Virus record (IMG/VR): IMGVR_UViG_3300038450_000150
Length of the DNA: 64,000 bases
Source: a virus
Lineage: Duplodnaviria; Heunggongvirae; Uroviricota; Caudoviricetes
Strand: one strand, 5' to 3'
The translations under genes and the position numbers were made by a program. The notes under the pieces were generated by a model. That model did not search any database. It had not been told where the DNA came from and saw nothing but the letters and a program-made list of their open reading frames with translations. Positions within the stretch are counted from its first letter, which is position 1. Each line of letters starts with the position of its first letter. Of this stretch, positions 7,297 through 40,389 are shown piece after piece.

Positions 7297-7298
7297 TG

Positions 7299-11116: not shown

Positions 11117-11135
11117 TTTATAAATATTTGGATTA
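11117..11135 (-). promoter_or_regulatory. BRE/TATA-like promoter motif
   Basis: tttataaatatttggatta, 28 nt upstream of the start at 11088. Confidence 0.55.
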
Positions 11136-11423: not shown

Positions 11424-11465
11424 TCCACATACAGTTTTGTATGTGAATTTATAAATATTTGGAAT

Positions 11466-11921: not shown

Positions 11922-11958
11922 AGAGGATAAGTAAGTATGAATTTATAAATATTGTGGT

Positions 11959-12737: not shown

Positions 12738-12770
12738 TTGATAAAAAATAGGTTTATGAAGTTATAAACA

Positions 12771-14681
12771 TTAGCCTAAATTAGTCCATTGCCTTGTATG
12801 GAACTCAACTTGTTTCATCTTATTCCAACTTGAGACAGGGACAAAGTATCCGACTATTCTGGTCATCCAGTCAAGTTCGTTTGAGCCACAAACTGGGCAA
12901 GTATTGTAGACACCCATCGAGTTGTGTCCTTTCTTACAGAGTGTGAATCCACGATTCAAGGCAAACTGCACGAGATCTGTGTTCTTGATTAGTCTGTCCT
13001 GGACTTTGAATCCATTGATCTCATCCATCGAGCCAAGGATATTGAGGTGCGCCATACTTCCACCAGTAGTTGTGTTCTGGAACTTGCCCTCAACCTCAAC
13101 TCTCTTACCCATAGGAATGTCATAACTTAGTGGGACAAACTGGCTGTTGTAGAACTGTTTTGTTGCTGTCTCAGGGAATTTGATTTTATCCTTTGCTGCT
13201 AGAAGTCCAGACGCACTTTCTGCTGGAACCTCTTCGATGTTGTACATTACGCCATCTTCGTGGGAGAACTGAACTGATAATTGCTTCATAAGGGATAGTA
13301 TTTTCAGACCTTGTGCCTGTCCTTCACCCTCTGTAATGGTTCCACCCATATACTCAATAGCATCTGCAAAGCCAACAAAGCCTATGGTGCTGAAGAAATT
13401 GGAATCAAGATTGAGTATTCCGTTCCTGAAGAATTCGTGGTACTTTACACGTCTTGCTCCTAGAATGTCTCTTCTGTGAACAAAGAGAAGCTGTCTAGCC
13501 TGACCAACACGATCAACTAGTAGTCTCTCGAACTCAGCCCAATTTCCCTTTGCCTCTAGTGCTATCCTTGGGAGATTGACCGTAACAACAGCGTGTGAAC
13601 CTAGAGTTAGGAAACTGCCAAAGGTGTTGTTGACCTTCATCTTCAACATATCCTCTATGTCGAGAGTTAGCTTGCAACACATAGATAATTTCTTCAAGTC
13701 TGTGTTCATATTTCTAAGAATGTTTAGGAAACAGAAGTCCTTGTTGAGTGTGAGGATCCTGTGATACTCTTCTGGATATTCCTTCTCCATTGAAGGATCA
13801 ATTACCAGAGTTGTTATCGGGAAACGATAAGGCAGATTCTGTAATTTCTTATCTGGACCAACCATACCCTTTGCAAGGAACTCTAGGAAGATCATCTGGT
13901 TCCTCATAATCTCGTCTATTAAATCTCCAATCTTGTAGTCTGAGTCTGGCCAGATATAATCTGCAAACATCGACCTCATAGTCTCTGGACTTAGGATACT
14001 GACGTTTGTGAATGGAGATTGACCTGAGAGGCGTTCCTTATCGGACACACCGTGAACTAGATTTTGCATATCGTTTAGTCTGGATTCATCTGGATAGTTG
14101 CCAACCATCTTTGTGAAGTAACTGTAGTTTACGAAGAAATCTGTGAGTGCTGTCGCTCCAGCAAAGCAATTTGCAGCAGCCTGGATTAGTCGAGCAGTTA
14201 GATTTGTGAAACTTGCTGGACGCTTTGGTGGTAGAGTTGGAACATCACTAAATTGAACTTGACCATAGAGTAAAGGAGTTGTTGAAAGCCCTATACAATA
14301 TGGGAGCTGGTAGAGAGTTGAGTTGTGGATGTAGAGTGCGCCATTGAATACATCACCGATTAACTCATCACCATTGTATTTCCTGCGGTTTGCATATCTC
14401 CTGTAGAGATAATAGCAACTAAGTTTTTCAATGGGATTGTTTACTTCGGTGATTTGATTCACAAAACTCTTCTTCTCTCCAGTATTGCCAAGATTGGCAT
14501 TGGGATTGATTGTAACAGCATCTACTGGTTGCGACCAGTAATCTCTCCTAAGTTTGAAAGGATTGATATTTCCCAAGCCATCCATTTTTATAAGGTCATA
14601 ATCAACATCTGCAAGATAGTCTGCAAATTCCTCATCAAAAGTTCCAAGTATATTTCTGAATTTCAGTTCATCACGATTCAT
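12771..14681 (-). CDS. nrdD: anaerobic ribonucleoside-triphosphate reductase (class III RNR)
   Basis: 636 aa. C-terminal Zn ribbon C...H...CPVCGS followed by the glycyl-radical motif RIVGYF. Confidence 0.85.
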   Translation of the reverse strand: MNRDELKFRNILGTFDEEFADYLADVDYDLIKMDGLGNINPFKLRRDYWSQPVDAVTINPNANLGNTGEKKSFVNQITEVNNPIEKLSCYYLYRRYANRRKYNGDELIGDVFNGALYIHNSTLYQLPYCIGLSTTPLLYGQVQFSDVPTLPPKRPASFTNLTARLIQAAANCFAGATALTDFFVNYSYFTKMVGNYPDESRLNDMQNLVHGVSDKERLSGQSPFTNVSILSPETMRSMFADYIWPDSDYKIGDLIDEIMRNQMIFLEFLAKGMVGPDKKLQNLPYRFPITTLVIDPSMEKEYPEEYHRILTLNKDFCFLNILRNMNTDLKKLSMCCKLTLDIEDMLKMKVNNTFGSFLTLGSHAVVTVNLPRIALEAKGNWAEFERLLVDRVGQARQLLFVHRRDILGARRVKYHEFFRNGILNLDSNFFSTIGFVGFADAIEYMGGTITEGEGQAQGLKILSLMKQLSVQFSHEDGVMYNIEEVPAESASGLLAAKDKIKFPETATKQFYNSQFVPLSYDIPMGKRVEVEGKFQNTTTGGSMAHLNILGSMDEINGFKVQDRLIKNTDLVQFALNRGFTLCKKGHNSMGVYNTCPVCGSNELDWMTRIVGYFVPVSSWNKMKQVEFHTRQWTNLG

Positions 14682-14804
14682 TTTTGGTCAACCAGTTTGT
14701 CTGCCGATAAGCATCGTAGCTATGGTACGAGAGCATATAAATATTATCAGGTCATTATCAAATGAAGAAAATTTATTATAAAAAAATTATGTGGGTGTTT
14801 ATAA

Positions 14805-14874
14805 TTCACCCACCTTTACTTTACTTCACTATACTAAACTCTACAAGACTTCACAACACACTACATTACTATAC
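14805..14874. repeat. G-free pentamer-periodic tract (NNNAC)x13 on the + strand, i.e. (GTNNN)n on the gene strand
   Basis: ttcac ccacc tttac tttac ttcac tatac taaac tctac aagac ttcac aacac actac attac tatac, with AC every 5 nt. Lies upstream of the nrdD leader. Confidence 0.6.
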
Positions 14875-14922
14875 TTCATTAAATTAATAACCATATATTA
14901 CATTTATAAATATTATCACCTA

Positions 14923-15390
14923 TTATATTCTTCCACCAAATTGCATACAAACAACACCGTTTGCACGTAATCCTTCTACGATTGTTGGAGAATCGTCAAA
15001 ATAAACATAAACACCTCTCTCACGAATAATCTTTAACTTTCTTTGGACAATATCATCCTGCCATTCTTTCCAAAGTCCTTTGTTTTTTAATTCTATATCT
15101 TGCCCAACTATCTCAAGTGAAAATTCTGGGAAATATTTGGCAACCCAACGTTTGGTGAGTTGAACCAATTTTTCATCCAAAAAATCCCTTGCGGTGATAA
15201 TAATTCCCTTATCTCCTTCGTGCATATATTCTTTCACGGAGAAAATTGGTTTTACTTGTCTATAAAAAAGTTCATATTCAAACTTTCTTTCATCTGGATT
15301 TGGATTCATATCAATTAAACGAAGTTTAACCGAATCTGTATCTCCAAGGCAACCGTCTAGGTCGAATCCGATAAGTTTTCCGCTATTCAA
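14923..15390 (-). CDS. HAD-superfamily phosphatase, 5'(3')-deoxyribonucleotidase-like
   Basis: N-terminal GFDLDGCLGD (HAD motif I, DxDG). 155 aa. Confidence 0.5.
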   Translation of the reverse strand: MNSGKLIGFDLDGCLGDTDSVKLRLIDMNPNPDERKFEYELFYRQVKPIFSVKEYMHEGDKGIIITARDFLDEKLVQLTKRWVAKYFPEFSLEIVGQDIELKNKGLWKEWQDDIVQRKLKIIRERGVYVYFDDSPTIVEGLRANGVVCMQFGGRI

Positions 15391-15395
15391 TTAAA

Positions 15396-15758
15396 TCACA
15401 TTCCTTTAATATTCTTCTCTATGTACTTGTCACAAGCACCTATTGAAAAATTCTTTCCACCTTCACCACCCTTACAAGTATTTGCACAGTCATCACACAT
15501 ACTGCCATAACAGGCAAGATCGGCTGTCGGACATCCATCTCTGATTGGGCAAGCACCCTTTGGATACTTACCTCTGTGACAATTCTCTCTTATTATTAAT
15601 TGTTCTGGATTGAGCTTTGCTAGGAATGCCTTCTCTGTGCATTCACAACGGTGTTCACTACCGTGCGGAAATGGCTTTCCATTGCCAAAATCCCAGCAAT
15701 ACTCTTCACATTGTCCACCACATTTGGGGCAAATCCAAGTGCATCTTTTAAGACTCAA
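15396..15758 (-). CDS. Cys-rich protein (120 aa, about 20 Cys)
   Basis: Multiple CxxC/CxC clusters. Sits between the HAD and nuclease genes. Confidence 0.4.
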   Translation of the reverse strand: MSLKRCTWICPKCGGQCEEYCWDFGNGKPFPHGSEHRCECTEKAFLAKLNPEQLIIRENCHRGKYPKGACPIRDGCPTADLACYGSMCDDCANTCKGGEGGKNFSIGACDKYIEKNIKGM

Positions 15759-16008
15759 CGTTGAACTCTCCTACTTCTGTTTCGCTCGAACATTTATCAC
15801 ACATACCTTGTTTCAGGTAGTAGTCGTAAAATGGCATAGGTATCTTGCATATATCACAGGGAATATCTGGTAACTCTATCTGTGATAGCATTTCTTCTAT
15901 TGGCTCAAACCAGAATTGAGCAATGTTTGGATCAACTTCGTTGAGAGCCAGCATTACTTGTTCACAGGCGTGAACATCATGTAGGCTTGGTCTAAATTTT
16001 GTTGGCAT
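15748..16008 (-). CDS. hypothetical protein (86 aa)
   Basis: ORF with C-x-C...CDKC. Confidence 0.3.
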   Translation of the reverse strand: MPTKFRPSLHDVHACEQVMLALNEVDPNIAQFWFEPIEEMLSQIELPDIPCDICKIPMPFYDYYLKQGMCDKCSSETEVGEFNVES

Positions 16009-16808
16009 TATTGTTCACTCTCTATGTACATACTATGAAGATGATTGTAAAGTGCTTTACCAAGAACTGGACCAACACCTTCACAAACTAAATCTTTTGC
16101 TTCCATTTCAGACATTAGGGAAATAGAACCAAACTTCTTGAGCAGAGCACGTGCCTTTGCCTCTCCTATTCCTTCACAACCCATCAGGGTCATAATTAAA
16201 CGCCTATTTGTGTTGTTTTTCTCTGCAACCTGGGGAAGGACAAGTGTGGGTTCTCTTATCAAACCGTTCTCATCGTCTAACTTTTTCTGGACGCATTGGA
16301 TAAGCAGACCTAAATCTTCTGTGCTTTCCAGCATTATGAGTGAGATTGATCCCTGTTCTCCGTCCTTGGCGTGTCTGAGGAATGCACCAGCAAGGGAAGA
16401 ATAAACAGAAGTTCTGTTGACTCCTGTTTTCTCGATTGCTCTGTTTATTGAGCCAACGTAGACTATGGCTGAATGCTTGGCAACCTGTGACATTCGAATT
16501 AACTGATCATTGAGGTGTTCGGTGATTAGGGATTGTATCCAGTCGAGCTCGGATTTGTGTTCGATAATGTATAGGATTACATCTCCATTCTGACCACTGA
16601 GTTGTATTGGAATTGGTTTTCCAAATATCCAGTAGTCACAGACATCAAGTTGTCTAAGCTGATATGGTAAGTTGAGTCTACCTAGGACACCAAGAATCTC
16701 TGTTGGAATCTCACGATTATCTACGAATATCATACTATAAATCTCCTCAACAACAAGAAAACTACAACAACAATGATAACTGCTGCTGTTGTATCTATGA
16801 CTATCCAC
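16008..16808 (-). CDS. XPF/Hef/Mus81-family (ERCC4) nuclease with C-terminal HhH2
   Basis: VDNREIP...DYWI...IEHKSELDWIQSL resembles the ERCC4 VDxRE / ERKS block. C-terminal GIGEAKARALLKKFGS...GVGPVLGKALY reads as helix-hairpin-helix pairs. Confidence 0.6.
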   Translation of the reverse strand: MDSHRYNSSSYHCCCSFLVVEEIYSMIFVDNREIPTEILGVLGRLNLPYQLRQLDVCDYWIFGKPIPIQLSGQNGDVILYIIEHKSELDWIQSLITEHLNDQLIRMSQVAKHSAIVYVGSINRAIEKTGVNRTSVYSSLAGAFLRHAKDGEQGSISLIMLESTEDLGLLIQCVQKKLDDENGLIREPTLVLPQVAEKNNTNRRLIMTLMGCEGIGEAKARALLKKFGSISLMSEMEAKDLVCEGVGPVLGKALYNHLHSMYIESEQ

Positions 16809-17057: not shown

Positions 17058-17482
17058 CTATCAGAGTAACTTCCTTCTGAGAGTGGTGAGTGTACAATCG
17101 AGCAGTATCCTGGCATCGATGTGCTTTCGTTAAATACCTTGACGTAATTTACGTATCGATCTGAGTTCTGGTAGGCCATAAGCATCGAGTTCACATGGCT
17201 CTCAATGTCTGGGATATCCTCTAGACTACTTAGATGGATTTGTGGATATGGATCGGTAGAGTTTGGATTGTATTTGTGAAACTTGGTTGGATAGTACATC
17301 ACAACCACAGACTTTATCTCACCGTTCCAGACATTCATTGAGATGCCCTGAATTGAGAGGTTACGCAGGGTGTTCAGACGTTTGTTTACAGCATTGGATA
17401 TCTTGGCTAGATATTCATTAAATGCACTACCATCGTAATGAATGTCGAGATCTTCCAAGTTTATAACCATAAGTTGAATCAA
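17054..17482 (-). CDS. hypothetical protein (142 aa)
   Basis: ORF. Confidence 0.35.
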   Translation of the reverse strand: MIQLMVINLEDLDIHYDGSAFNEYLAKISNAVNKRLNTLRNLSIQGISMNVWNGEIKSVVVMYYPTKFHKYNPNSTDPYPQIHLSSLEDIPDIESHVNSMLMAYQNSDRYVNYVKVFNESTSMPGYCSIVHSPLSEGSYSDR

Positions 17483-17661
17483 TATAGAACAGGCTCCTGT
17501 GGATGTTCGAACATTCCCTCAAGCCAGTTGTACAATGGTGTGATTGATGATTCAACATCGTCTGGCTTTTTTATGTTTTCGGTCTTGACCAGTTGTTGAT
17601 AAAGTTTTAGAAGTTCCTGTTTTTCTACCTTAGTAAGCAGATCTTCTGGTTTTGTAGACAT
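17479..17661 (-). CDS. hypothetical protein (60 aa)
   Basis: ORF. TTTATAAA at 17691, 29 nt upstream. Confidence 0.25.
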   Translation of the reverse strand: MSTKPEDLLTKVEKQELLKLYQQLVKTENIKKPDDVESSITPLYNWLEGMFEHPQEPVLY

Positions 17662-24099: not shown

Positions 24100-24171
24100 T
24101 GTAGTCTACCTGATAAAGGAACATAGAATTTATAAATATTTGGAAATTATATGACATTTCTCTGGAGTAGA

Positions 24172-24513
24172 TTACTTCCGTAAATTGGTGATTTCTTGTG
24201 CCTTGCATCTACAGAGTAGACAACGTGTCATTAGTTCTACTCCATTTTTCTCAACATCAACTTTGCCAGCAATGAGTTTTAGTTTATAGGAATTGGAAAT
24301 CGGTGTGTTGTGATTCATTCCACGTGCAAGCATTTCCTTGACTATCTCATCGTGACGTGTGCGGATATGGTGAACTTCAACCAAACCATTTTGGATATAT
24401 CCTTCAATGCTCTTTCCTTTCTCGATGCAACCAACAAACATATGGAGTTCGAGATGTTCACCAAGAAGGTGCTTGTCACACATCATCTGGGGTGGGATCA
24501 TCCACATTCTCAT
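24172..24513 (-). CDS. denV: pyrimidine-dimer DNA glycosylase (T4 endonuclease V / DenV-like)
   Basis: N-terminus MRMWMIPPQMMCDKHLLGEHLELHMFVG parallels T4 endoV [29 protein letters not shown]. 113 aa. Confidence 0.6.
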   Translation of the reverse strand: MRMWMIPPQMMCDKHLLGEHLELHMFVGCIEKGKSIEGYIQNGLVEVHHIRTRHDEIVKEMLARGMNHNTPISNSYKLKLIAGKVDVEKNGVELMTRCLLCRCKAQEITNLRK

Positions 24514-24553: not shown

Positions 24554-24757
24554 TTACTCGATTACGTTTCCATATCTGTCTCTTTTCTTCAATCTCCAAA
24601 TATAGAGTTCGTGATGCTTGCCATATGGGGTTTCAGTGCTTATAATATGAGTTTGCCATTCTGGGTGCTTCTTTTTTATCTTTGTGGCCACTTGCTTGGC
24701 ACTGCTGAGAGTCTTGTACCAGGCATAGTACTTGTATTTATTGAAAAACCCAACCAT
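24554..24757 (-). CDS. hypothetical basic protein (67 aa)
   Basis: ORF. Confidence 0.3.
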   Translation of the reverse strand: MVGFFNKYKYYAWYKTLSSAKQVATKIKKKHPEWQTHIISTETPYGKHHELYIWRLKKRDRYGNVIE

Positions 24758-24961
24758 TTACTTCACCCATTTATGCTTGATTCTTCCGAGCTCACCTAGA
24801 TGGATGCGTTCTGCACTGATTATGCGACCAATGGTCATTGCTTCTTCAGAATAACCACCTTTTTCTAGGTTGGCTTGGAATTTCTTATAGTCTGCTATAA
24901 CTTGTTTCTCCGAAACACGTATAGCATGTTCGAGTTGTTTTCTTAGAGTTGCATTCACCAT
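24758..24961 (-). CDS. small protein, paralog A (67 aa)
   Basis: Similar to the adjacent ORF (…ELGRIKHKWVK versus …ELAEIKRKWMRMK). Confidence 0.35.
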   Translation of the reverse strand: MVNATLRKQLEHAIRVSEKQVIADYKKFQANLEKGGYSEEAMTIGRIISAERIHLGELGRIKHKWVK

Positions 24962-24962: not shown

Positions 24963-25172
24963 TTACTTCATCCTCATCCATTTTCTCTTGATCTCTGCAA
25001 GTTCTCTACGATGAACTTCCTCTTCTCGTCTGATTTCAATGATTTTACGTGCTTCTTCCACTCTGCCATTTGCCAAAAGATGAGTATAGAATTTGTTATA
25101 GCCACGTATGGCCACAATCTCACCACGATCATTGCTGGCAAGTTCCCTAAACTCTGATTTACTAGGTTTCAT
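24963..25172 (-). CDS. small protein, paralog B (69 aa)
   Basis: Tandem duplicate of 24758-24961. Confidence 0.35.
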   Translation of the reverse strand: MKPSKSEFRELASNDRGEIVAIRGYNKFYTHLLANGRVEEARKIIEIRREEEVHRRELAEIKRKWMRMK

Positions 25173-25332
25173 TTCAATCTCTCCCCACAGAATGGACAGT
25201 GAAGTCCACCGTTTGGAACGTATTTGTAGACATAACTACCCTTTTTGAAGAGATGTTTGTTCTTACAAACTTTATCCTTTCTAATCTGAATACGTGTTCT
25301 TGGTGAACCTTCATCATACTTGAGTCTCTTCA
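25168..25332 (-). CDS. mini Zn-ribbon protein (about 54 aa), below the ORF-track threshold
   Basis: Own translation: MKRLKYDEGSPRTRIQ...HCPFCGERLK. Confidence 0.25.
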
Positions 25333-25356
25333 TTTTTACATCTCCTAATTTATCAT

Positions 25357-25629
25357 TTAATTGCCTCTAGTATTATGGAAGCCTTTTGCTCCTTTTTTCC
25401 TCATCCTTATCCTGTCAAGACGAAGCACTTCATTTGCATATTGAAGTGGGCCATCGTAGGTGAGATACCAGAAGTGTTTGCTTGGAGTCATTGACCACTC
25501 GATAGATGCCTGACCGTGTGGTGTCTTGTAGTATGAAGCATAATTTGTGTGCTTGTCCTGGTAGGGATCGTTGACGGTTTCCTTTTCTTGACGGACATAC
25601 TTTACTTTTGGATTTGTCATATTTATCAC
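25357..25629 (-). CDS. small basic protein (90 aa), array member
   Basis: ORF. Part of the tightly packed 25.2-30.2 kb operon. Confidence 0.35.
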   Translation of the reverse strand: MINMTNPKVKYVRQEKETVNDPYQDKHTNYASYYKTPHGQASIEWSMTPSKHFWYLTYDGPLQYANEVLRLDRIRMRKKGAKGFHNTRGN

Positions 25630-25832
25630 AGTTTTAGGAACGCTTCTATCATTGCTCTGCTAAATCCTTCCTTTTTAGCATTGATAGCAAAGACTTCTTT
25701 CTTGTCAAGACGCTTTGGAACAGTGCCACCATATATTGAGGTTGGATAACTGTTTTGCCAAACTCTCTGCATACGATCTGCTTTTGTCTTTCCATATTTC
25801 TTTACGAAACGCTGTTCATCATCAAAACCCAT
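25626..25832 (-). CDS. small basic protein (68 aa), array member
   Basis: ORF overlapping its neighbours by 4 nt. Confidence 0.35.
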   Translation of the reverse strand: MGFDDEQRFVKKYGKTKADRMQRVWQNSYPTSIYGGTVPKRLDKKEVFAINAKKEGFSRAMIEAFLKL

Positions 25833-25843
25833 TTCATTTCCAC

Positions 25844-26065
25844 CTACATAGTATATCTGCTTTGATTCCAGAATAGCTTTTTAATACTCTTCTGGGGTCT
25901 GAGTTTATCTTTTGGAACCCTGACAACGTACAGCCCATTTGGTAATTGGTAGATGGTGTGTTTCCACTCTTTGGAAACTCTCTTAGATACTTCAATTGAG
26001 AGTGTGGCTAACCACTTACTTTTATCACGAACAATCGCTTCTTGACTTATTTTTCGTATGGTCAT
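25844..26065 (-). CDS. small basic protein (73 aa), array member
   Basis: ORF. Segment YQLPNGLYVVRVPKD. Confidence 0.35.
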   Translation of the reverse strand: MTIRKISQEAIVRDKSKWLATLSIEVSKRVSKEWKHTIYQLPNGLYVVRVPKDKLRPQKSIKKLFWNQSRYTM

Positions 26066-26214
26066 TTGCTTTTCCTCCTAACTTTTCTAACTACTCCGAA
26101 CTTGATATCTAAATCAGAAATCCTGTATAGTGATGCAGGATATTCTTTATGTAAAAATTCCAATGCTTGTTTATAGTTTTTTGCCATAACTCTGACAGAT
26201 TGGTAAGTTGTCAT
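26062..26214 (-). CDS. mini basic protein (about 50 aa), array member, below the ORF-track threshold
   Basis: Own translation MTTYQSVRVMAKNYKQALEFLHKEYP... ATGA overlap with the next gene. Confidence 0.25.
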   Translation of the reverse strand: MTTYQSVRVMAKNYKQALEFLHKEYPASLYRISDLDIKFGVVRKVRRKSK

Positions 26215-26217
26215 TTT

Positions 26218-26415
26218 TTATTTTCTCCTATATTCTTTCTGGTATTCTTTACGTAGACGCTTGTCTATGTATGTGTAAGTCTTGCCACAGTATGGACAAC
26301 CAACTTTGCAGAAGCCACTTGCAGACATTTCACTCCAGCCCTCATCGGGTTTAAGGTGTCTATGGCAGTACGGACAAGTGCCTGTCTTGTTCTCTGAAAC
26401 CCTTTTCATTACCAT
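26218..26415 (-). CDS. Zn-ribbon basic protein (about 65 aa), array member
   Basis: CPYCHRH...CPYCGK. Start trimmed to the internal Met to avoid overlapping 26417-26686. Confidence 0.35.
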   Translation of the reverse strand: MVMKRVSENKTGTCPYCHRHLKPDEGWSEMSASGFCKVGCPYCGKTYTYIDKRLRKEYQKEYRRK

Positions 26416-26416
26416 T

Positions 26417-26686
26417 TTACTTCCAGTTCCCCTTTTTGTACCAGCTTGGATATGAGTGCTTATTCTTATACTGTACAAGGTAATGCTTTGGATCGTATTT
26501 TGGTCTTGAGTGAGATATACTTACTCTTAACATATCGCCCCTGTGTTTTGCATTGTCAGCAACTATCTTAGCTTCTTCATATGTTTCGGCTGTGAACACT
26601 AACTTGTTTGCCTTTCCCTGGGCTTTACCCCATCCAGACAAAAATTTGTCTGTCATTGTGACCCAATACTTGTAAGTTGTGACCAT
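26417..26686 (-). CDS. small basic betaalphabetabeta-like family protein (89 aa)
   Basis: KLVFTAETYEEAKIVADNAKHRGDMLRVSI...HYLVQY fits the family pattern shared with 26846, 27067, 27295, 27585, 27798 and 28592. Confidence 0.4.
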   Translation of the reverse strand: MVTTYKYWVTMTDKFLSGWGKAQGKANKLVFTAETYEEAKIVADNAKHRGDMLRVSISHSRPKYDPKHYLVQYKNKHSYPSWYKKGNWK

Positions 26687-26839
26687 TTACTTTTTCGCTC
26701 TCCTAAGATGAACTTGCGTAGGCTTGTATGTTGTCCCGTCTGTGAACTTCTTACGTGCCTCTCTTGCACTATCAGCAACTACTTTGTGCCATCTTCCACC
26801 CCTGTGGGGATATTTTAACTCATAAACGTGTTTGGTCAT
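26687..26839 (-). CDS. mini basic family protein (about 50 aa), below the ORF-track threshold
   Basis: Own translation MTKHVYELKYPHRGGRWHKVVADSAREARKKF... carries the same AxxxA / basic helix motif. Confidence 0.3.
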   Translation of the reverse strand: MTKHVYELKYPHRGGRWHKVVADSAREARKKFTDGTTYKPTQVHLRRAKK

Positions 26840-26845
26840 TTTATG

Positions 26846-27064
26846 TCATTTCTCCTTGACTACTGCATAGAGGACATATGTCCTTTTATCATATCTGTCT
26901 TTCGGTTTGGTGGATGGAAACATAACTATTCTGGTATAAAATCCACCTTTTTTCCAGTGTTTTGCAGCGTGTTCAATAGATGATTTTGTTGGGTGATCGG
27001 CAACTTTAAGATATGTTCTATGACCGAATTTTTTAGTTATTGGGATACGTGGAAGTCTTTTCAT
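26846..27064 (-). CDS. small basic betaalphabetabeta-like family protein (72 aa)
   Basis: TYLKVADHP...AAKHWKKGGFYTRIV...TYVLYAV. Confidence 0.4.
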   Translation of the reverse strand: MKRLPRIPITKKFGHRTYLKVADHPTKSSIEHAAKHWKKGGFYTRIVMFPSTKPKDRYDKRTYVLYAVVKEK

Positions 27065-27066
27065 TT

Positions 27067-27294
27067 TTAGCGTTTCTCCTTATTGGCTGTGTAGAGGATA
27101 TAATACATCTTGCCTCTCATATTTTTGAGTTTAGGATCATTACCACGATATGGACCTGCCTTGACCACACGTGCCATCATACCATCTTTGCGCCTTCTCT
27201 CGGCTGTCTTTTGCATCTCACGTTTGGAGAAGTCTGAGTCATCTAGATAGAAGTGCTTACCGCCTATCCATTTTGTGCTCTGTGGTTTTCTCAT
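27067..27294 (-). CDS. small basic betaalphabetabeta-like family protein (75 aa)
   Basis: FYLDDSDF...AERRRKDGMMARVV...YYILY. Confidence 0.4.
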   Translation of the reverse strand: MRKPQSTKWIGGKHFYLDDSDFSKREMQKTAERRRKDGMMARVVKAGPYRGNDPKLKNMRGKMYYILYTANKEKR

Positions 27295-27615
27295 TTAGAA
27301 TCCTCCGATATCATATGCACTCCAAGACTTCTTTCTCTTAGATCCTTCAACATATCTCTTATAAAGGACATAAAGTGTGGCTTTGCGTTTTCCATCCTTA
27401 GCCTTGAATGGTTTGACTATTTCATTTCTAAGTCCAGCTTCATTTGTGTGCTTTGCCCACCTTTTAGCAACGTCACTATAGAATGTGTAACTTGAGATCA
27501 CAACATCATATTTCTTTCCACGATGAATTACGTGCTCAGGAACTTTGAAGGTGAAACCACCATATTCAATTGTTTCCATATTTATCAGTACTCCTTCCAG
27601 ATGTAGACTGCCCAC
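27295..27615 (-). CDS. small basic family protein (106 aa)
   Basis: YDVVISSYTFYSDVAKRWAKHTNEAGLRNEIV...TLYVLY. Confidence 0.4.
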   Translation of the reverse strand: MGSLHLEGVLINMETIEYGGFTFKVPEHVIHRGKKYDVVISSYTFYSDVAKRWAKHTNEAGLRNEIVKPFKAKDGKRKATLYVLYKRYVEGSKRKKSWSAYDIGGF

Positions 27616-27797
27616 ATAGTGTGGGTCACTCCACCAACTTTTACCATTCTTGCGAGATAGCCTTTCTTCCTATATTTGGTTGCTCCTTCCTTTGCCTGAG
27701 TCTTTAATCTATAAAGACGTATGGGATGGAATAAGTGCTTACCAAATTTTCTAGAAGTGACAACCTTGTCAAACTCAGAACCGTGATATCTCACCAT
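27585..27797 (-). CDS. small basic betaalphabetabeta-like family protein (70 aa)
   Basis: LYRLKTQAKEGATKYRKKGYLARMV...WAVYIW. Confidence 0.4.
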   Translation of the reverse strand: MVRYHGSEFDKVVTSRKFGKHLFHPIRLYRLKTQAKEGATKYRKKGYLARMVKVGGVTHTMWAVYIWKEY

Positions 27798-27995
27798 TTA
27801 CTTTTTCCTCCTGAATACCATAACGTACTTCTGGCCACTCTTTTGAGTGTAAGTAGGAACAAGCCTGACGCTCCAGCCTTCAGCCTTCAGTTTTTCCTTG
27901 TGATATGGTGCTGTACCTTTTTGTGTAGTGACATAGAGATGGTAGATTTTACCATCAATCACTTTCTCCGAACCGATTAGCCTTCTTTTTCCCAT
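27798..27995 (-). CDS. small basic betaalphabetabeta-like family protein (65 aa)
   Basis: YHLYVTTQ...KEKLKAEGWSVRLV...YVMVF. Confidence 0.4.
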   Translation of the reverse strand: MGKRRLIGSEKVIDGKIYHLYVTTQKGTAPYHKEKLKAEGWSVRLVPTYTQKSGQKYVMVFRRKK

Positions 27996-28126
27996 TATTT
28001 TTTACCTTCCTTGGGATACCATATGTTCTTTAGTTTGGCATCTGAACCCCAGAGAGTGCCAACCTTTAGGGAGTTATCTCCCCAGAGGGAACCTTGTTTA
28101 AAAGAATATTTTTTCTTAGTGGGCAT
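27996..28126 (-). CDS. mini ORF (about 43 aa), array member
   Basis: Own translation MPTKKKYSFKQGSLWGDNSLKVGTLWGSDAKLK... Fills the gap in the operon. Confidence 0.2.
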
Positions 28127-28128
28127 AG

Positions 28129-28410
28129 CTACTTCTCCTTGTATGCCTTTAGGTCTGATTCGTGTCTGTACATTGCCTTTGGTTTGCCTGGGATTTTAAC
28201 ACGGTATTCGTATCCAGTGACATAGAGAGCAGAGCCAAGGACTTTTGCCTTTAACCCACTCTTTGTTTGTACCCACTGACCGACCCTGAACTTTCTCTTT
28301 GGATGTTTATGACCCATTACGTCTGTCCTGCCGTCTGTGTAATCCTTTGCCATTTTATCTCGCCTTCCCGTACACGACATATAGTGGTGGAAAACCACGT
28401 AATGTCTCAT
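28129..28410 (-). CDS. small basic protein (93 aa), array member
   Basis: ORF. Confidence 0.35.
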   Translation of the reverse strand: MRHYVVFHHYMSCTGRRDKMAKDYTDGRTDVMGHKHPKRKFRVGQWVQTKSGLKAKVLGSALYVTGYEYRVKIPGKPKAMYRHESDLKAYKEK

Positions 28411-28591
28411 TATTTGGAATCATTTTTATTCCAAAGATATTTCCTGTTTTTTTCTTTAGAGCAGCCATTTTCTTTTTAGTCACAGATAGATGCTGTGAAT
28501 AAACGTGAAGCATTTCGTACTCAGAACCTCTAACAGTCACTGAGTCTGGTAGTGTATATGAGTACTTTCCAACTACTACTTTTCTATCCAT
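28355..28591 (-). CDS. small basic protein (78 aa), array member
   Basis: ORF. Its 5' end overlaps the previous ORF, so the true start may be internal. Confidence 0.3.
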   Translation of the reverse strand: MDRKVVVGKYSYTLPDSVTVRGSEYEMLHVYSQHLSVTKKKMAALKKKTGNIFGIKMIPNNETLRGFPPLYVVYGKAR

Positions 28592-28891
28592 TTACTTTCT
28601 CCTCCCTAAATGAACTCCCTTATCGGTTATAACCGTCCACTCTGAATTTCCTCTGAATTTTGTCATACTGCCTCTACGCTTTTTCTTAGGAGCAATATAT
28701 ACAGCGTGTGTATCCTTACCCTTTCCACTAGGAACTATTGGTGAATATGACTTTGGAATTTTTACAATCCTTATCTTGTAACCAATTGAAGCAGATTCCT
28801 TTGCGTGTGCTTGGCAATGTGCTTTTGTTCCCTCACAGTCTAGGACATAGGTTTCTCCATTGAATTTCTTCGTGAATGCTGTCTGCTTCAT
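28592..28891 (-). CDS. small basic betaalphabetabeta-like family protein (99 aa)
   Basis: TYVLDCEGTKAHCQAHAKESASIGYKIRIV...HAVYIAPKKKRRG. Confidence 0.4.
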   Translation of the reverse strand: MKQTAFTKKFNGETYVLDCEGTKAHCQAHAKESASIGYKIRIVKIPKSYSPIVPSGKGKDTHAVYIAPKKKRRGSMTKFRGNSEWTVITDKGVHLGRRK

Positions 28892-29035
28892 TTACTTTTT
28901 CCTCCCATATTTCTGTTCAATTAGTTTCTGGTGCTTCTGTAGACGTTTAATCTCTTTATCTGTCTCTCTGAAAAACTTCTCCATTTTAAGTCTTTCATCT
29001 TTGAGCATTTTTCTGGCTACTGGATCGCTTACCAT
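28892..29035 (-). CDS. mini basic coiled protein (about 47 aa)
   Basis: Own translation MVSDPVARKMLKDERLKMEKFFRETDKEIKRLQKHQK... TAATG overlap with its neighbour. Confidence 0.25.
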   Translation of the reverse strand: MVSDPVARKMLKDERLKMEKFFRETDKEIKRLQKHQKLIEQKYGRKK

Positions 29036-29367
29036 TACTTCTTTCTCCTTACTGTTTGTTTGAACCCATAGAACCTTTCAAACTGTTCTGGGGTCATCGG
29101 TGTTCCACCACTTGGAAATTTCTTGTAGAGTTTACAAGCATTTGAGATTGTAATCTTTTTCTTTGTGTAGCCATATACCTGTGGGTTGCTAAGAACCATA
29201 CCAGCTCTCTGCAATGGGAATTGTTTTCCAACTATCAGGGACTTTCTCTTTTTCTTGTATTCTGAGTCAGATATCTTTTTTGCAAGCCAATCTTTATCAA
29301 GTTTTTCAAGCTGTCTATTAATGGCTTGTATTCTTGCTGATATCTGCTTGTGTGTTAGCATTACCAT
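29035..29367 (-). CDS. basic protein (110 aa), array member
   Basis: ORF. Confidence 0.35.
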   Translation of the reverse strand: MVMLTHKQISARIQAINRQLEKLDKDWLAKKISDSEYKKKRKSLIVGKQFPLQRAGMVLSNPQVYGYTKKKITISNACKLYKKFPSGGTPMTPEQFERFYGFKQTVRRKK

Positions 29368-29368
29368 T

Positions 29369-29614
29369 TTAATCTACCCATCCTGCTTCTCCAGACTTGA
29401 GCAATTTTCTAGCCCTATCTGGTGTGATTGCTCTCATTGATGCTACATCTTCCTTACGGAAAGCATAATAATGAGGTGTCTGTGATGATCTTGCTTTCTT
29501 TGCCTGAGTTGGAGTTCCAGCCCAAAGTCCATCCTGTATGTGTCTACCTCTCTTCATTTTGATATGATAGATCTTCCATCCAGACTTGATATTACGTCTA
29601 CCAACTACTGGCAT
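29369..29614 (-). CDS. basic protein (81 aa), array member
   Basis: ORF. Confidence 0.35.
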   Translation of the reverse strand: MPVVGRRNIKSGWKIYHIKMKRGRHIQDGLWAGTPTQAKKARSSQTPHYYAFRKEDVASMRAITPDRARKLLKSGEAGWVD

Positions 29615-29620
29615 CTAAGA

Positions 29621-29785
29621 TCACCTATAATCTCCAACATTTCCATATCCTGGTTTCTTTGGATGGAATTTTGATTTGTGTCTCTTGTCAGCAGCTATGG
29701 ATTTACCGATGCTAACCCACTTTTTGAATCTGCCGTCTGCATAGCGTTCTACATAGAACTTTCCAATTTTACTTCTTGCAACCAT
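29621..29785 (-). CDS. mini basic protein (about 54 aa)
   Basis: Own translation MVARSKIGKFYVERYADGRFKKWVSIGKSIAADKRHKSKF... Antisense to the spurious + ORF 29678-30058. Confidence 0.25.
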   Translation of the reverse strand: MVARSKIGKFYVERYADGRFKKWVSIGKSIAADKRHKSKFHPKKPGYGNVGDYR

Positions 29786-29968
29786 TTACTTTTTCAACCC
29801 CATTCTTTCTGCTCTTTTGGATGCTACAAGCAATTCCTTATTTGTGAACACCCAAGATCTGTCCTTTGCCATAATTCCAGAGTAGGTTTTATGGCGTTTT
29901 GGATCGTGAATTCTAACGGCAGTAACTTTAGTTTTTCTGCCTACTGTGTGTGCTTTATTTTCTGTCAT
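29786..29968 (-). CDS. basic protein (60 aa), array member
   Basis: ORF. Confidence 0.35.
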   Translation of the reverse strand: MTENKAHTVGRKTKVTAVRIHDPKRHKTYSGIMAKDRSWVFTNKELLVASKRAERMGLKK

Positions 29969-30175
29969 TTACTTTCTTCTCCTCATTCTGTCACGGTGTT
30001 TCTTTGTAGAACGGACACGAGCGTGATATACTTCCATAGCGTGTTCCTTACCAGCTAACCTGATTGCTTTTAGAGGTTTACCATTGCCATCTGTACCACC
30101 AGAAACCCAGTAGTACCCAAGGATAATACCGTATGTATCCCTGTCCTTACAAATAGAAACTTTTCTCCTTGCCAA
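29969..30175 (-). CDS. very basic protein (68 aa), first gene of the array
   Basis: ORF ending ...KKHRDRMRRRK. The distinct promoter region lies immediately upstream. Confidence 0.35.
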   Translation of the reverse strand: MARRKVSICKDRDTYGIILGYYWVSGGTDGNGKPLKAIRLAGKEHAMEVYHARVRSTKKHRDRMRRRK

Positions 30176-30324
30176 GGTTTGTCTAAGTGGATATCACTAG
30201 CTGAGAATATAAAGTTTATGATAAATCGTTATGATATTGATAGATGTATCGGTATGGTACATCTAGCTCATCTTTTTATGATAATTCTTTTATCTTAGCG
30301 TTCAAGATAGATTAACTGATAACA
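30176..30324. promoter_or_regulatory. divergent control region of the basic-protein operon and the + gene 30325
   Basis: Lacks the canonical TTTATAAATATT motif. Contains aatataaag TATA-like element and three copies of TTATGATA(A/T). Confidence 0.4.
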
Positions 30325-30573
30325 ATGGTTCCACCACCAAGAAAAAGAATCTTCTTAACAAAGAAGAGAGGCTGGTCGAAAGACCTTCCTGCATCAGAGC
30401 GCAGAAAGAGAGTGTATTCCACCACAGATCATAAAAAGACTAGACACAACCGCTACCTTGAAGCATTCAGGGCAACACAGGGTCTAGCTAATCTCAGTAA
30501 GGATCCTGACACAAAGGCAAAGGCAAAGTCTGATGCAAATTACTTCTCCAAGAAAATGGAGAAGTACCAATAA
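30325..30573 (+). CDS. very basic protein (82 aa)
   Basis: The only + strand ORF in this stretch. Lys/Arg-rich. Convergent with 30581-30961. Confidence 0.4.
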   Translation: MVPPPRKRIFLTKKRGWSKDLPASERRKRVYSTTDHKKTRHNRYLEAFRATQGLANLSKDPDTKAKAKSDANYFSKKMEKYQ

Positions 30574-31055: not shown

Positions 31056-32900
31056 TTAGACTGCTTTGGTAGCTGCCTCTTTCTTTCGAAGCATCTGAGC
31101 CAGCCAGACATTGAGTAGGTTGCCTTGGGCTTCTCCACCATTGCCACCTGAAACTAGGATATCAGGTGTGATAGTGATCTTGCCAGAGGCAATCTGCTCG
31201 AACACCTTTAGCATTGCAACGTTGTCCTGACCTAGGACACCCATCTGTGCAGCATATGCTTTAGCTGTACCTACACCTTCCTGTTCATTCTTGTAAGCTG
31301 TACCGTCTGCCTGAGCCTTAGTTGCATCACGAACACCAGCAGCTTCCATCCTTGCTGCATCTGCACGGTCTGCTGCAATATCGATTGACAGTTTAGCTGA
31401 GATAACGTCAGTCTGCTTGTCAGCCCTTGCCGTTTTCTCTGCTACAGCAATCCTCTGCTCCTGTGCAAGTGCTTCCTGCTGGTACTGTGCCTGTTGCTGG
31501 GCAGCTATTTCCTTCTTTGTCTGAGTTTCTAGTAGTGCCTTGTCAACATCAATGTAAGCAATTAGCAGCCCCTGAACCTCTGTGTGGTACTTCGAGAACT
31601 CTTCACGAGCCTTCTCAAGTGCCTGTTCCTGTAGTTCAGTTCGGCTGTGGACGAACTGCATTGCCTGTTTCTTGCCAGCTTCGTTACGGAAGGAGGAGTC
31701 GATCAGTGGGTGAGCAACCTGTTCAATCAGGTTCTGTACAGTACCGAACCTTGCAATCACGAAAGGTGCATTGGCTGGAGGTACACGGATGATGAGCCTG
31801 ACATCTACATCAAGCTGGAACCCATCCATTGAAGTTACACGAAGTTGGCTGAACTTGAAGAACTCTGTGATCTTCTGGCTCTGGGAAACGTCCTTTCCCT
31901 GAGCTCCAAGTACACGTGTCTCTGCTGGACCCTCAGTTGATGCCCAATCTATAGTGATAGCGGAAGTAGGTACTAACTCAGGCTTGTAGGCGATTTGGTT
32001 AAGGTTGTACTTTCCAGGTGTAACTGGCTCGGCCAGAATACCACGCTGGTTCTTGTCAGTGATTAGAAGAGACTCAACTGTCTCTGGAATTGGGGAATTG
32101 AGATCAGGTGTCTTGCTGATTTTTGGTGCTTCACCACTAGGCTGGACTTCCTTTCCAACACTGGAAATGATTACAGCAACGTAGCCTGGTGGGACAACAG
32201 CAACATCATAGAGAGTGACTTGGAATAGGTTAGTATTTATGTAGTAATCACCTGGCTGAAGTGTCTCAAGTTGTGGACCCCTGTAGCCACCAGCCTCAAT
32301 GAAGGCTTGGCTGTCTTGGAAGTGCTTGTGATCTGATGTGGGTGCTGGAGCAATTATGAAACCAGATGGCAGTGAATTGCCATCCATAGCAACAACTACA
32401 CCGACCCTCTCCTGTGGAACTTGTACTGCACCAACTGCTGTGACTTTGAATACAGCTAGGTTGATACGATAAACACCTGGGCGAAGTACACCAATCTGAG
32501 GACCCTTCTTTCCACCATTCTTGAGGAATGCCCCTGCATCTTGGTACGAATTACATTCAACCTCATCTGCAAGGATACGACCAGATGGAATGGATTGTCC
32601 GTCAATGGACTCAACTAGACCAATATTTCCCTGTGGAATCTCGGTCACTTCGACCTTCTTAATCTTCCAGATTATGGGGAAACGCCAGTAAAGTCCAGGC
32701 ATAAGGGTTTCAGCTTGAATACCGACCTCACCCTCAGTAGCAATGATTTTTCCCTGTGGTAATTTCTTGCCAAACATTTTCTTAACTAGGATACCGACCT
32801 CACCAGCTTTGATGAGAGCGAATCCTGGTAGCACGAAGAAAACTAAGCATATTAGTACGACAATGCCTAGAATCCCTAGTCCGATTAGATCTTCAAACAT
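31056..32900 (-). CDS. SPFH/flotillin-like (YqiK-type) membrane protein with internal repeats
   Basis: N-terminal TM. Duplicated about 90-aa segment (FQDSQAFIEAGGYRGPQLETLQPGDYYIN versus YQDAGAFLKNGGKKGPQIGVLRPGVYRIN). C-terminal Ala/Glu/Gln-rich coiled coil and ITITPDILVSGGNGG...LLNVWLAQML tail typical of the flotillin C-terminus. Confidence 0.65.
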   Translation of the reverse strand: MFEDLIGLGILGIVVLICLVFFVLPGFALIKAGEVGILVKKMFGKKLPQGKIIATEGEVGIQAETLMPGLYWRFPIIWKIKKVEVTEIPQGNIGLVESIDGQSIPSGRILADEVECNSYQDAGAFLKNGGKKGPQIGVLRPGVYRINLAVFKVTAVGAVQVPQERVGVVVAMDGNSLPSGFIIAPAPTSDHKHFQDSQAFIEAGGYRGPQLETLQPGDYYINTNLFQVTLYDVAVVPPGYVAVIISSVGKEVQPSGEAPKISKTPDLNSPIPETVESLLITDKNQRGILAEPVTPGKYNLNQIAYKPELVPTSAITIDWASTEGPAETRVLGAQGKDVSQSQKITEFFKFSQLRVTSMDGFQLDVDVRLIIRVPPANAPFVIARFGTVQNLIEQVAHPLIDSSFRNEAGKKQAMQFVHSRTELQEQALEKAREEFSKYHTEVQGLLIAYIDVDKALLETQTKKEIAAQQQAQYQQEALAQEQRIAVAEKTARADKQTDVISAKLSIDIAADRADAARMEAAGVRDATKAQADGTAYKNEQEGVGTAKAYAAQMGVLGQDNVAMLKVFEQIASGKITITPDILVSGGNGGEAQGNLLNVWLAQMLRKKEAATKAV

Positions 32901-32941: not shown

Positions 32942-32963
32942 TTTATAAATATTTGGAATTTGG
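32942..32963 (-). promoter_or_regulatory. BRE/TATA-like promoter motif upstream of the SPFH gene
   Basis: tttataaatatttggaatttgg. Confidence 0.5.
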
Positions 32964-33045
32964 TGGGGTTACAAGGAGTCGAACCCTGACCCTTGGTTTT
33001 CCCCTATTTCTGGGGACCAAGATGCTACCGCTACACCATAACCCC
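32961..33045 (-). tRNA. tRNA with an apparent 13-20 nt insertion in the anticodon region (intron-like), isotype undetermined
   Basis: Minus-strand sequence GGGGTTA...GGTTCGACTCC...TAACCCCACCA has acceptor and T-arm. The segment CTTGG-TCCCCAGAAATAGGGGAAAA-CCAAG is too long for a 7-nt anticodon loop. Confidence 0.5.
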
Positions 33046-34440: not shown

Positions 34441-34520
34441 TGGCGGGTTCGGAGGGATTTGAACCCCCGACAAGTGGATTAAAAGTCCACTGCGCTAAGA
34501 CCTGACTGCGCCACGAACCC
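34441..34520 (-). tRNA. tRNA-Lys (anticodon TTT), CCA encoded
   Basis: GGGTTCG...GTGGA-CTTTTAA-TCCAC...GGGGGTTCAAATCCCTC-CGAACCC-G-CCA. Own TATA at 34543. Confidence 0.75.
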
Positions 34521-34559
34521 AGCACTGAATAGTATGACTGAATTTATAAATATTGTGAA

Positions 34560-34637
34560 TGGTGGACTCGAAGGGATTTGAACCCCTGACCCTTGGCTTA
34601 GAAGGCCAATGCTCTATCCAAGCTGTGCTACGAGTCC
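34560..34637 (-). tRNA. tRNA-Arg (anticodon TCT), CCA encoded
   Basis: GGACTCG...GGCCTTCTAAGCC...GGGGTTCAAATCCC...CGAGTCC-A-CCA. Confidence 0.75.
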
Positions 34638-34639
34638 AA

Positions 34640-34719
34640 TGGTGAGTCTGAGGGGATTTGAACCCCTGAATGGAGGATTAAGGGTCCTCTGCGCTAGACC
34701 TTGCTACGCCACAGACTCA
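34640..34719 (-). tRNA. tRNA-Lys (anticodon CTT), CCA encoded
   Basis: GAGTCTG...GAGGACCCTTAATCCTC...GGGGTTCAAATCCCC...CAGACTC-A-CCA. TATA at 34739, about 20 nt upstream. Confidence 0.75.
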
Positions 34720-38158: not shown

Positions 38159-38235
38159 TGGTGGCGAAGAGCAGACTTGAACTGCTGATGCCCTGATTAT
38201 CAGTCAGGTGGACTACCAAGCTGTCCTACTTCGCC
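38159..38235 (-). tRNA. tRNA-Ile (anticodon GAT), CCA encoded
   Basis: GGCGAAG...CCTGA-CTGATAA-TCAGG...CAGCAGTTCAAGTCTGCTG? T-arm...CTTCGCC-A-CCA. Confidence 0.7.
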
Positions 38236-38240
38236 AAGAA

Positions 38241-38321
38241 TGGTAGAGAGGATGGGATTCGAACCCACATAAAGGCAAGGATTATGAGTCCTCCGAGATA
38301 ACCAGGTTCCTCTACCTCTCT
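38241..38321 (-). tRNA. tRNA with anticodon CAT (Met, or Ile2 if lysidine/agmatidine-modified); 81 nt, 8-nt variable loop
   Basis: AGAGAGG...GAGGA-CTCATAA-TCCTT...GTGGGTTCGAATCCCAT-CCTCTCT-A-CCA. Only 5 nt from tRNA-Ile. TATA at 38343-38350, 21 nt upstream. Confidence 0.6.
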
Positions 38322-40285: not shown

Positions 40286-40313
40286 AGAAACACGTTAAGA
40301 CTTTATAAATATT

Positions 40314-40389
40314 TGGAGCCCCAGGCAGGACTCGGACCTGCGACCATCAACTTACAAGGTTGACGCACTACCAACTATGCTACAGGGGC
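40314..40389 (-). tRNA. tRNA-Thr (anticodon TGT), CCA encoded
   Basis: GCCCCTG...TCAAC-CTTGTAA-GTTGA...GGTCCGAGTCC...CTGGGGC-T-CCA. One T-T mismatch in the acceptor stem. TATA variant at 40416. Confidence 0.65.

Follow-up and report, generated by a model that had tools for sequence, protein, structure and literature searches.

An array of 26 small genes lies on the minus strand of the window analysed here, a stretch of 64,000 nucleotides belonging to the tailed-virus record IMGVR_UViG_3300038450_000150. The array consists of successive open reading frames (ORFs) of 43–110 aa and runs from 30175 to 24554 (Table 1). About 24 tightly packed ORFs had been predicted from the letters alone; 23 (o01–o23) are found within 25168–30175, and o24–o26 extend the chain to 24554, so that it is longer than first thought. 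Gaps at the junctions range from -4 to +23 nt; in 23 cases out of 25 the genes overlap or are at most 6 nt apart. The proposed spacing of 0–6 nt or overlap thus holds except for two gaps of 11 and 23 nt, and the mini-ORFs below 60 aa are present but number six (o03, o06, o10, o16, o19 and o23), not seven. A Shine-Dalgarno sequence (GGAGG, AGGAG or GGTGA) stands 5–10 nt before most starts, usually within the C-terminal codons of the preceding gene (AGG AGG AAA AAG TAA ATG). Because these sites are encoded in the terminal codons of the upstream gene, ten products carry RRKK-like C-terminal tails, and the basic tails are therefore partly a by-product of Shine-Dalgarno sequences in RRKK codons.

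In seven orthologue pairs between the array and its relative L011, the proportion of nonsynonymous differences (pN, 0.11–0.37) is far below that of synonymous differences (pS, 0.50–0.89), which argues that the array genes are real. Array genes are present as public gene calls on 18 contigs, and the public gene callers overlooked one real ORF, o18. All in all, the 26 real genes of the region read as a single polycistronic operon with translational coupling.

That almost all products are strongly basic had been noticed from the sequence and is borne out by calculation: the isoelectric point (pI) exceeds 9.5 in 25 of the 26 array products, compared with 19% of the other small ORFs and 4% of the large ORFs in the window. 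Across the 26 products the net charge is +5 to +19 and the pI 9.45–10.84, with lysine making up 15.3% and arginine 8.2% of residues. None of the 26 proteins has a hydrophobic segment (no 15-residue Kyte-Doolittle mean is above 0.9), and neither a signal peptide nor a membrane anchor was found among them; the products are predicted to be soluble, cytoplasmic and uniformly very basic.

No array protein reaches the Pfam gathering score, the sub-threshold matches being zinc fingers (o18, o23) and one weak rubrerythrin (8.7e-4), and none matches the Pfam families histone, Alba, Sul7d/Cren7, MC1, HU or ribosomal proteins. Placement among ribosomal or histone families, which the original prediction had named as the result that would speak against it, was thus not found. 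When all array proteins were scanned against PHROGs, o17 alone matched, to a PHROG of unknown function, and a megablast comparison with 50,697 phage records gave no match for the region. We would guess that the rubrerythrin match belongs to o25, as o24 scanned alone gave none. These two proteins are paralogues (41% identity, E = 1.6e-8), and their C-terminal helix contains E-x-x-H (REEEVHRREL, SAERIHLGEL). By eye, o09 looks like a small beta-barrel.

An undescribed family of basic mini-proteins

Five of the products (o07, o11, o12, o14 and o15) are robust paralogues, recognized at E = 7e-17 to 2e-13 by an independent profile hidden Markov model (HMM), that is, one built from family members outside the window only; comparisons within the window connect o07, o12, o14 and o15. 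The more divergent o13 and o26 are probable family members. For o08 a direct comparison with the family HMM was not significant, but an HMM of o13 matches o08 over its full length (E = 1.4e-6; z = 4.5 in a pairwise shuffle test). We count eight putative members in the array, five of them beyond doubt and o08 joining through o13, in agreement with the paralogous family of about eight first proposed, whose five quoted examples all prove robust.

The family is built on a mini-domain of about 65 aa with the consensus RKFnGKxY-x-L...tKxeAxxxAkklRkkGYxARIVK...YaVYvRkk, in which G, K, A, G and R are near-invariant and aromatic strand residues are conserved; several of the family sequences read end in RRKK-like tails. 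An exhaustive HMMER profile search of 1.8 billion representative proteins returned 350 matches at E <= 1e-3. Among the 150 matches listed, nearly all are 55–80 aa long and cover almost the whole profile. Long multi-domain matches (tail fibres etc.) were rejected as spurious, resting on a short FNGK-Y stretch, and no useful domain fusions emerged. A word-indexed homologue search gave only self matches and one relative, a cluster look-up of ten family matches gave unnamed metagenomic proteins only, and queries with the family, o05 or o09 in GTDB genomes and IMG/VR gave pattern matches with no confirmed relative. When 101 family members were compared with PHROGs, no PHROG was matched by more than two of them (best E = 5.9e-4); a PDB sequence profile search with the family and a Foldseek search of BFVD (best E = 0.067) yielded nothing significant. 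The family is thus undescribed in the libraries searched (Pfam, PHROGs, PDB, BFVD), as the failure to assign it by eye had suggested, and yet it is widespread.

AlphaFold, supplied with 101 family sequences, predicts for o14 a beta-beta-alpha-beta-beta fold (predicted local distance difference test score, pLDDT, 88.4) with strands at residues 7–10, 13–21, 40–48 and 63–70 and a helix at 24–36. The model of o08 obtained with the family alignment, and partly driven by that alignment, has the same core plus an N-terminal hairpin (pLDDT 80). From these models the family fold would be a simple two-layer alpha/beta unit that weakly resembles one SPOR repeat.

Amplification and turnover in related elements

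Relatives of the element carry the expanded family as well, a point that the original prediction had set out as a check. The close relative L028, a 105-kb contig, and its sister contig L011, whose Band_7 protein is 83% identical to that of the window, share the locus. In L028 the same divergent gene and promoter are followed by about 36 small genes, all with products of pI 9.1 or more, at least 12 of them family members. Eleven genes of the window have orthologues there (o01, o05, o09, o10, o12, o14, o13, o16, o21, o23 and o24; identities 41–87%), in nearly the same order, with o13 and o14 swapped and with different genes in between. An unrelated virus-like contig of 44% GC, L013, encodes 24 family proteins (25 domains) within 13.6 kb (2377–16016), of pI 10–12 throughout and most with RRKR-like tails.

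The related arrays thus hold 12–24 family copies. Between relatives a scaffold of about 11 collinear genes is kept, and the intervening genes, many family members among them, are replaced. Together, the L028 and L013 arrays indicate that the family has been amplified in tandem repeatedly, with fast turnover on the conserved scaffold.

A putative second promoter class

Elsewhere in the window genes are preceded by a canonical motif, ATATTTATAA (ATWTTTATAA), which occurs in 28 copies where 0.8 would be expected by chance. It lies almost always on the gene strand (for example at 24130–24139, 32943–32952, 40303–40312 and 43694–43703) and, in the intergenic spacers read, precedes the gene start by a few tens of nucleotides. 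Its appearance is that of an archaeal TATA box accompanied by a fixed element upstream. The observation that the array lacks this motif is confirmed, there being no copy between 24140 and 32942.

The array is instead headed by the distinct control region recognized in the original prediction, and the repeats reported there are found as three copies of TTATGATA (at 30216, 30229 and 30276). This region contains a composite promoter-like motif, ATCATAAACTTTATAT, at 30207–30222, which reads on the coding strand as TTATCATAA-AC-TTTATAT (general form TTATCATAA-N2-TTTATAT, with TTATCATAA at 30216–30224) and whose 5' end precedes the TTG start codon of o01 by 49 nt. Within 24.5–30.3 kb it occurs only at the head of the array. 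Over the 66 nt preceding o01, L011 is about 88% identical to the window, a conservation that is meaningful because synonymous sites between the two are saturated.

The composite motif is found once at the head of the L011 and L028 arrays and six times in a more distant element, L015, each copy 39–50 nt upstream of the start of a small gene. A second copy in the window, with one mismatch, lies at 61999–62014. It precedes three minus-strand ORFs (60878–61960) for a 230-aa DUF5661 protein, a 39-aa product (pI 10.8) and an 85-aa product (pI 11.3), and a homologue of the DUF5661 protein, 43% identical, is encoded in L015, where the composite promoter is likewise in use. This placement in L011/L028, L015 and the window marks the composite motif as a putative second promoter class tied to small-gene blocks.

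The divergent gene on the other side of the control region encodes a small basic protein that has no Pfam match, and one might guess that it is a candidate regulator. At the opposite end, a 52-nt spacer containing a T-run separates o26 from the next gene, whose near-canonical promoter, AATTATTTATAAG, also lies in it. That gene encodes a pyrimidine-dimer glycosylase (24172–24501) and, with this promoter of its own, lies outside the operon.

Table 1. Genes of the array and other features of the window. Coordinates are those of the whole stretch; HMM denotes the independent family HMM and dN/dS the ratio of nonsynonymous to synonymous substitution rates.
Feature	Coordinates	Strand	Description	Evidence
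Divergent gene	30325..30573	+	82-aa basic protein, pI 10.5, divergent from the array	72-79% identical homologues at same position in relatives; dN/dS 0.10
Control region	30176..30324	-	149 nt, between array and divergent 82-aa gene	
o01	29969..30175	-	68 aa, TTG start, first operon gene, conserved scaffold	78% identical to L011/L028 orthologue, likewise with TTG start; dN/dS 0.15
o02	29786..29968	-	60 aa, basic, lineage-specific	
o03	29621..29785	-	54 aa, basic mini-ORF	
o04	29369..29614	-	81 aa, basic; AGGTGATC Shine-Dalgarno sequence upstream	
o05	29035..29367	-	110 aa, conserved scaffold	62% identical to L011/L028 orthologue; no Pfam match
o06	28892..29035	-	47 aa, helical K/E-rich mini-ORF	
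o07	28592..28891	-	99 aa, robust family member, domain in residues 1-74 plus basic C-terminal extension	HMM E = 7.8e-16; present on 18 contigs
o08	28355..28591	-	78 aa, putative divergent family member of o13 subtype, extra N-terminal beta-hairpin	
o09	28129..28353	-	74 aa, scaffold	81% identical to L011/L028 orthologue; dN/dS 0.06
o10	27995..28126	-	43 aa, mini-ORF	41% identical to L011/L028 orthologue
o11	27798..27995	-	65 aa, robust family member	HMM E = 2e-13
o12	27585..27797	-	70 aa, robust family member	HMM E = 2.6e-16; orthologue P0005 67% identical
o13	27295..27579	-	94 aa, probable divergent family member, N-terminal hairpin	HMM E = 5.5e-3; L011/L028 orthologue 41% identical
o14	27067..27294	-	75 aa, robust family member, modelled	HMM E = 7.4e-17
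o15	26846..27064	-	72 aa, robust family member	HMM E = 5.8e-14
o16	26687..26839	-	50 aa, mini-ORF	orthologue is part of a 132-aa L028 protein, 64% identity
o17	26417..26686	-	89 aa, phrog_5423 member, separate family	
o18	26218..26415	-	65 aa, zinc ribbon (CPYC...CPYC)	sub-threshold zinc-ribbon Pfam matches
o19	26062..26214	-	50 aa, mini-ORF	
o20	25844..26065	-	73 aa, 4-nt overlap with o19 (ATGA)	
o21	25626..25832	-	68 aa, scaffold gene of highest orthologue identity	87% identical to L028 orthologue
o22	25357..25629	-	90 aa, GTG start, 4-nt overlap with o21, without clear Shine-Dalgarno sequence	
o23	25169..25333	-	54 aa, Cys-containing mini-ORF	matches part of a 97-aa protein of L028, 58% identity
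o24	24963..25172	-	69 aa, helical, paralogue of o25	71% identical to L028 orthologue
o25	24758..24961	-	67 aa, helical, paralogue of o24	
o26	24554..24757	-	67 aa, last array gene, probable divergent family member	HMM E = 2e-3; hhalign E = 0.0066
Pyrimidine-dimer glycosylase	24172-24501	-	T4 endonuclease V-like, directly downstream of the array	Pfam Pyr_excise 5.7e-14; phrog_1183
SPFH/Band_7 protein	31056-32900	-	614 aa, conserved upstream neighbour of the array	83% identical in L011; 615-aa Band_7 gene in same place in L028
Seven tRNA genes	32961-33045, 34441-34718, 38159-38321, 40314-40389	-	Trp, Lys-UUU, Arg-UCU, Lys-CUU, Ile, Met, Thr	
Viral TFIIB/TFB	42720-43730	-	zinc ribbon and two cyclin repeats	

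o17 and its phage homologues

The one array protein with a PHROG match, o17, aligns with phrog_5423 at E = 1.9e-30 (residues 2–89 against profile positions 4–90 of 93), and a tblastn search with it reached 62 phage records. Hypothetical proteins from Bacillus and Brevibacillus myophages (Herelleviridae) share 42–55% identity with it, and gene 3 in a T7-like Pseudomonas phage, one of the first (left-end, early) genes there, shares 38%. In Chotacabras, the one Bacillus phage of the Herelleviridae that was inspected, the homologue lies near the right end among small hypothetical genes and adjoins genes for a DNA mimic and an HU-like protein. For a gene of an apparently archaeal virus, identities of 38–55% to phage proteins are an unusually close cross-domain match. 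The family pattern is visible by eye in o17, and we considered it as a ninth family member, but rejected it at an hhalign probability of 2.7%.

The element and its probable host

The window matches a contig of about 197 kb from independent peat metagenome assemblies (JGI 3300018005 Ga0187878_1000020; NCBI JAFMOA010002524.1), and by rough calls about 84% of its ORFs are on the minus strand. Its recognizable genes encode a family B DNA polymerase (PolB), RFC-like clamp-loader subunits, an ERCC4/HhH (XPF-like) nuclease, XPD-like and UvrD-like helicases, NrdD, Thg1, an SPFH/Band_7 protein and collagen-like proteins, besides a viral TFIIB. The canonical promoter copy at 43694–43703 falls inside the 5' end of the longest TFIIB ORF, and the true start is therefore probably further downstream. 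The nearest cultured relatives of the polymerase, at 24% identity, are haloarchaeal tailed viruses, and an exact 42-mer of the PolB gene has no match in GTDB genomes or the IMG/VR collections. The TFIIB, PolB, RFC, XPF-like and XPD-like genes, together with TATA-type promoters and Shine-Dalgarno sites, point to an archaeal host, and we infer that the element is probably a large, virus-like one using archaeal transcription.

An Rfam scan of the window found tRNAs only, and no internal DNA repeats were found in it. The acceptor pair of tRNA-Met is A1:U72, as in archaeal and eukaryotic initiators, and the codons read by tRNA-Lys(UUU), tRNA-Lys(CUU) and tRNA-Arg(UCU) are about twofold enriched in the array. 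The two independent 197-kb contigs stop at about 17600 of the window, 7 kb beyond the array, while the window reads through that point; a 6-kb contig from another sample departs from the window at 17229 into a glycosyltransferase. The point at about 17229–17602 could mark the end of the genome, the junction of a circle or a site that varies between strains. At the far side of the window, a 758-aa protein (58596–60872, plus strand) combines a GH5 cellulase domain with a hydrophobic N-terminus and a membrane-like C-terminal segment, and could possibly be an auxiliary or cell-envelope-directed enzyme in a viral genome.

Discussion

The fast turnover of genes, the dedicated and conserved promoter and the finding that phages carry their o17 homologues in regions of small genes lead us to suggest that the operon is an accessory or host-takeover module of cytoplasmic binders of nucleic acid or host proteins, a proposal to which we would give about an even chance. 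In this model the dedicated promoter class would activate all genes of the module together, likely early in infection, and the small products would bind nucleic acid or host proteins in the cytoplasm of the host, in takeover or anti-defence; the expansion and turnover of the family would then reflect an arms race. As to nucleic-acid binding by the array proteins, we infer only that it is plausible. The two promoter classes and the viral TFIIB could together underlie temporal control.

Known viral systems offer partial parallels. The array shares with takeover clusters a contiguous run of small genes mostly without known function and a dedicated promoter that is conserved in relatives. The host-takeover cluster of SPO1 comprises about 26 small genes (PMC6873191), and the module is like the array in being a contiguous set of some two dozen small genes, mostly of unknown function, with its own promoters in a large virus (PMC6873191). 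The Herelleviridae are like the array also in their o17 homologues and, in the phage inspected, the small-gene neighbourhood of that homologue. On the other hand, the host machinery of the array is probably archaeal, one promoter serves 26 translationally coupled genes where SPO1 has many early promoters, and the products are all strongly basic with one mini-domain family amplified; early timing and the takeover role are, for the array, our proposal. The terminal early small genes of SIRV2, among them anti-defence genes and a paralogous anti-CRISPR (Acr) family, share a dedicated consensus regulatory sequence (PMC11065993). As in the array, unannotated small genes, with a paralogous family among them (the AcrID1 homologues), there carry a dedicated, conserved promoter and regulatory sequence distinct from those of the remaining genome (PMC11065993). 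In SIRV2, however, these are mostly single genes, each with its own copy of the motif, whereas here one copy heads an operon of 5.6 kb (six copies being present in L015), and virus type and host differ. No similarity of array proteins to known Acr or Acr-associated (Aca) proteins was detected, in searches that included no dedicated Acr library.

Hyperplastic regions, or multigene "accordions", of T4-like phages, poxviruses and giant viruses combine tandem amplification with rapid turnover of small accessory genes on a conserved scaffold. The array resembles them in its amplification and turnover on a scaffold and differs in consisting of a single translationally coupled operon with a novel basic domain of 65 aa.

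Several points weigh against an accessory or takeover module. No biochemical function has been assigned to any of the array members. That 26 unrelated folds are all extremely basic is atypical of known takeover modules and would suit proteins that are packaged, or that coat DNA or RNA, just as well. Both the timing and the single-transcript status are drawn solely from the absence of internal promoters, and since the viral TFIIB gene carries the canonical promoter, either promoter class could be the early one. The closest known relatives of o17 are from bacteriophages, though the host is probably archaeal.

The main rival explanation is that the array encodes late, abundant basic proteins, virion-associated or genome-condensing, which coat packaged DNA or are injected like the internal proteins of T4. 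The net charge of +5 to +19 in all 26 products, the equal basicity of related arrays and the presence of collagen-like, fibre-type genes 7–14 kb away would agree with this, as would the viral tRNAs for the enriched lysine and arginine codons, which would be expected for high expression. However, no structural hallmark gene adjoins the array, no common N-terminal targeting or cleavage motif is present, and the fast turnover of genes between close relatives would be unusual for core components of a virion. The only member with cultured relatives, o17, sits in non-structural small-gene regions and, to our knowledge, tailed-virus capsids do not need condensing proteins. We therefore regard this explanation as unlikely: the genome-condensing or virion-core role put forward at the outset finds no evidence here, and turnover, the dedicated promoter and the context of o17 favour an accessory or takeover operon. 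The proteins could instead be directed at RNA, binding rRNA, mRNA or tRNA and so reprogramming translation or RNA stability. In the model, the exposed sheet with its conserved aromatics and invariant K and R would resemble the surface of an RRM or a ribosomal protein, and the SPO1 takeover protein Gp49 is reported to be an RNA binder (PMC10531801). No sequence link to any RNA-binding family was found, and we consider this quite improbable.

Two further explanations concern the nature of the sequences themselves. The original guess of a SPOR- or ferredoxin-like betaalphabetabeta fold came close to the predicted beta-beta-alpha-beta-beta arrangement, but it did not hold as regards SPOR membership. 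Were the family members true SPOR domains binding cell-wall glycan, this could account for the weak matches of 19 of 101 members of the wider family to PF05036 (best E = 2.8e-5; one score seen was 20 bits against a cut-off of 21) and for the appearance of the CwlC SPOR domain at E = 0.56 in the PDB profile search. Yet six window members compared with PF05036 gave no match even at E <= 1. The SPOR domain (PF05036; CwlC, RlpA, FtsN) is a two-helix beta-alpha-beta-beta-alpha-beta unit on a four-stranded sheet, whereas the modelled family fold has five elements and a single core helix; and SPOR domains are extracytoplasmic and bind denuded peptidoglycan, whereas the array proteins are stand-alone, highly basic and predicted to be cytoplasmic, with neither signal peptide nor membrane anchor, in a host whose machinery is probably archaeal. 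With sequence threshold, full topology and extracytoplasmic location all lacking, we rejected SPOR membership as very improbable. The chance that the ORFs are an accident of AT-rich, purine-skewed DNA, or non-coding, is negligible. Their shortness and the lack of a database family for 25 of the 26 could be cited for it, but it is already refuted by pN far below pS in the seven orthologue pairs, eleven collinear orthologues in L028, 350 homologous family clusters elsewhere, regularly placed Shine-Dalgarno sites and a confident AlphaFold model.

A bolder version of the coating idea would see in the beta-beta-alpha-beta-beta proteins a new class of viral nucleic-acid-coating or -remodelling proteins (viral "chromatin" or RNA chaperones) of large archaeal viruses and their kin, whose genes stand in tandem in translationally coupled arrays, up to about 24 to an array, under a dedicated promoter class that is possibly read by a different TFB, of host or virus; this we find doubtful. 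Returning to the accessory or host-takeover module that we favour, we conclude that the array is a variant of the known viral accessory small-gene module, distinguished by an undescribed protein family and a usable promoter signature.

Hardly anything has been explored of large archaeal viruses, their takeover of the host included, and the locus offers a compact, co-regulated block of 26 small proteins with which to approach it. The TTATCATAA-N2-TTTATAT signature could serve to locate similar blocks in other viral genomes, the same approach having found anti-defence genes in Sulfolobus viruses. The family itself is a further handle: it comprises about 350 clusters, occurs in tandem in as many as 24 copies and has been modelled with confidence by AlphaFold. 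The two promoter classes and the virus's own TFIIB make temporal control of transcription by an archaeal virus testable, and should the family prove to bind nucleic acid or to block the defences of the host, its members would be new and easily synthesised small effectors.

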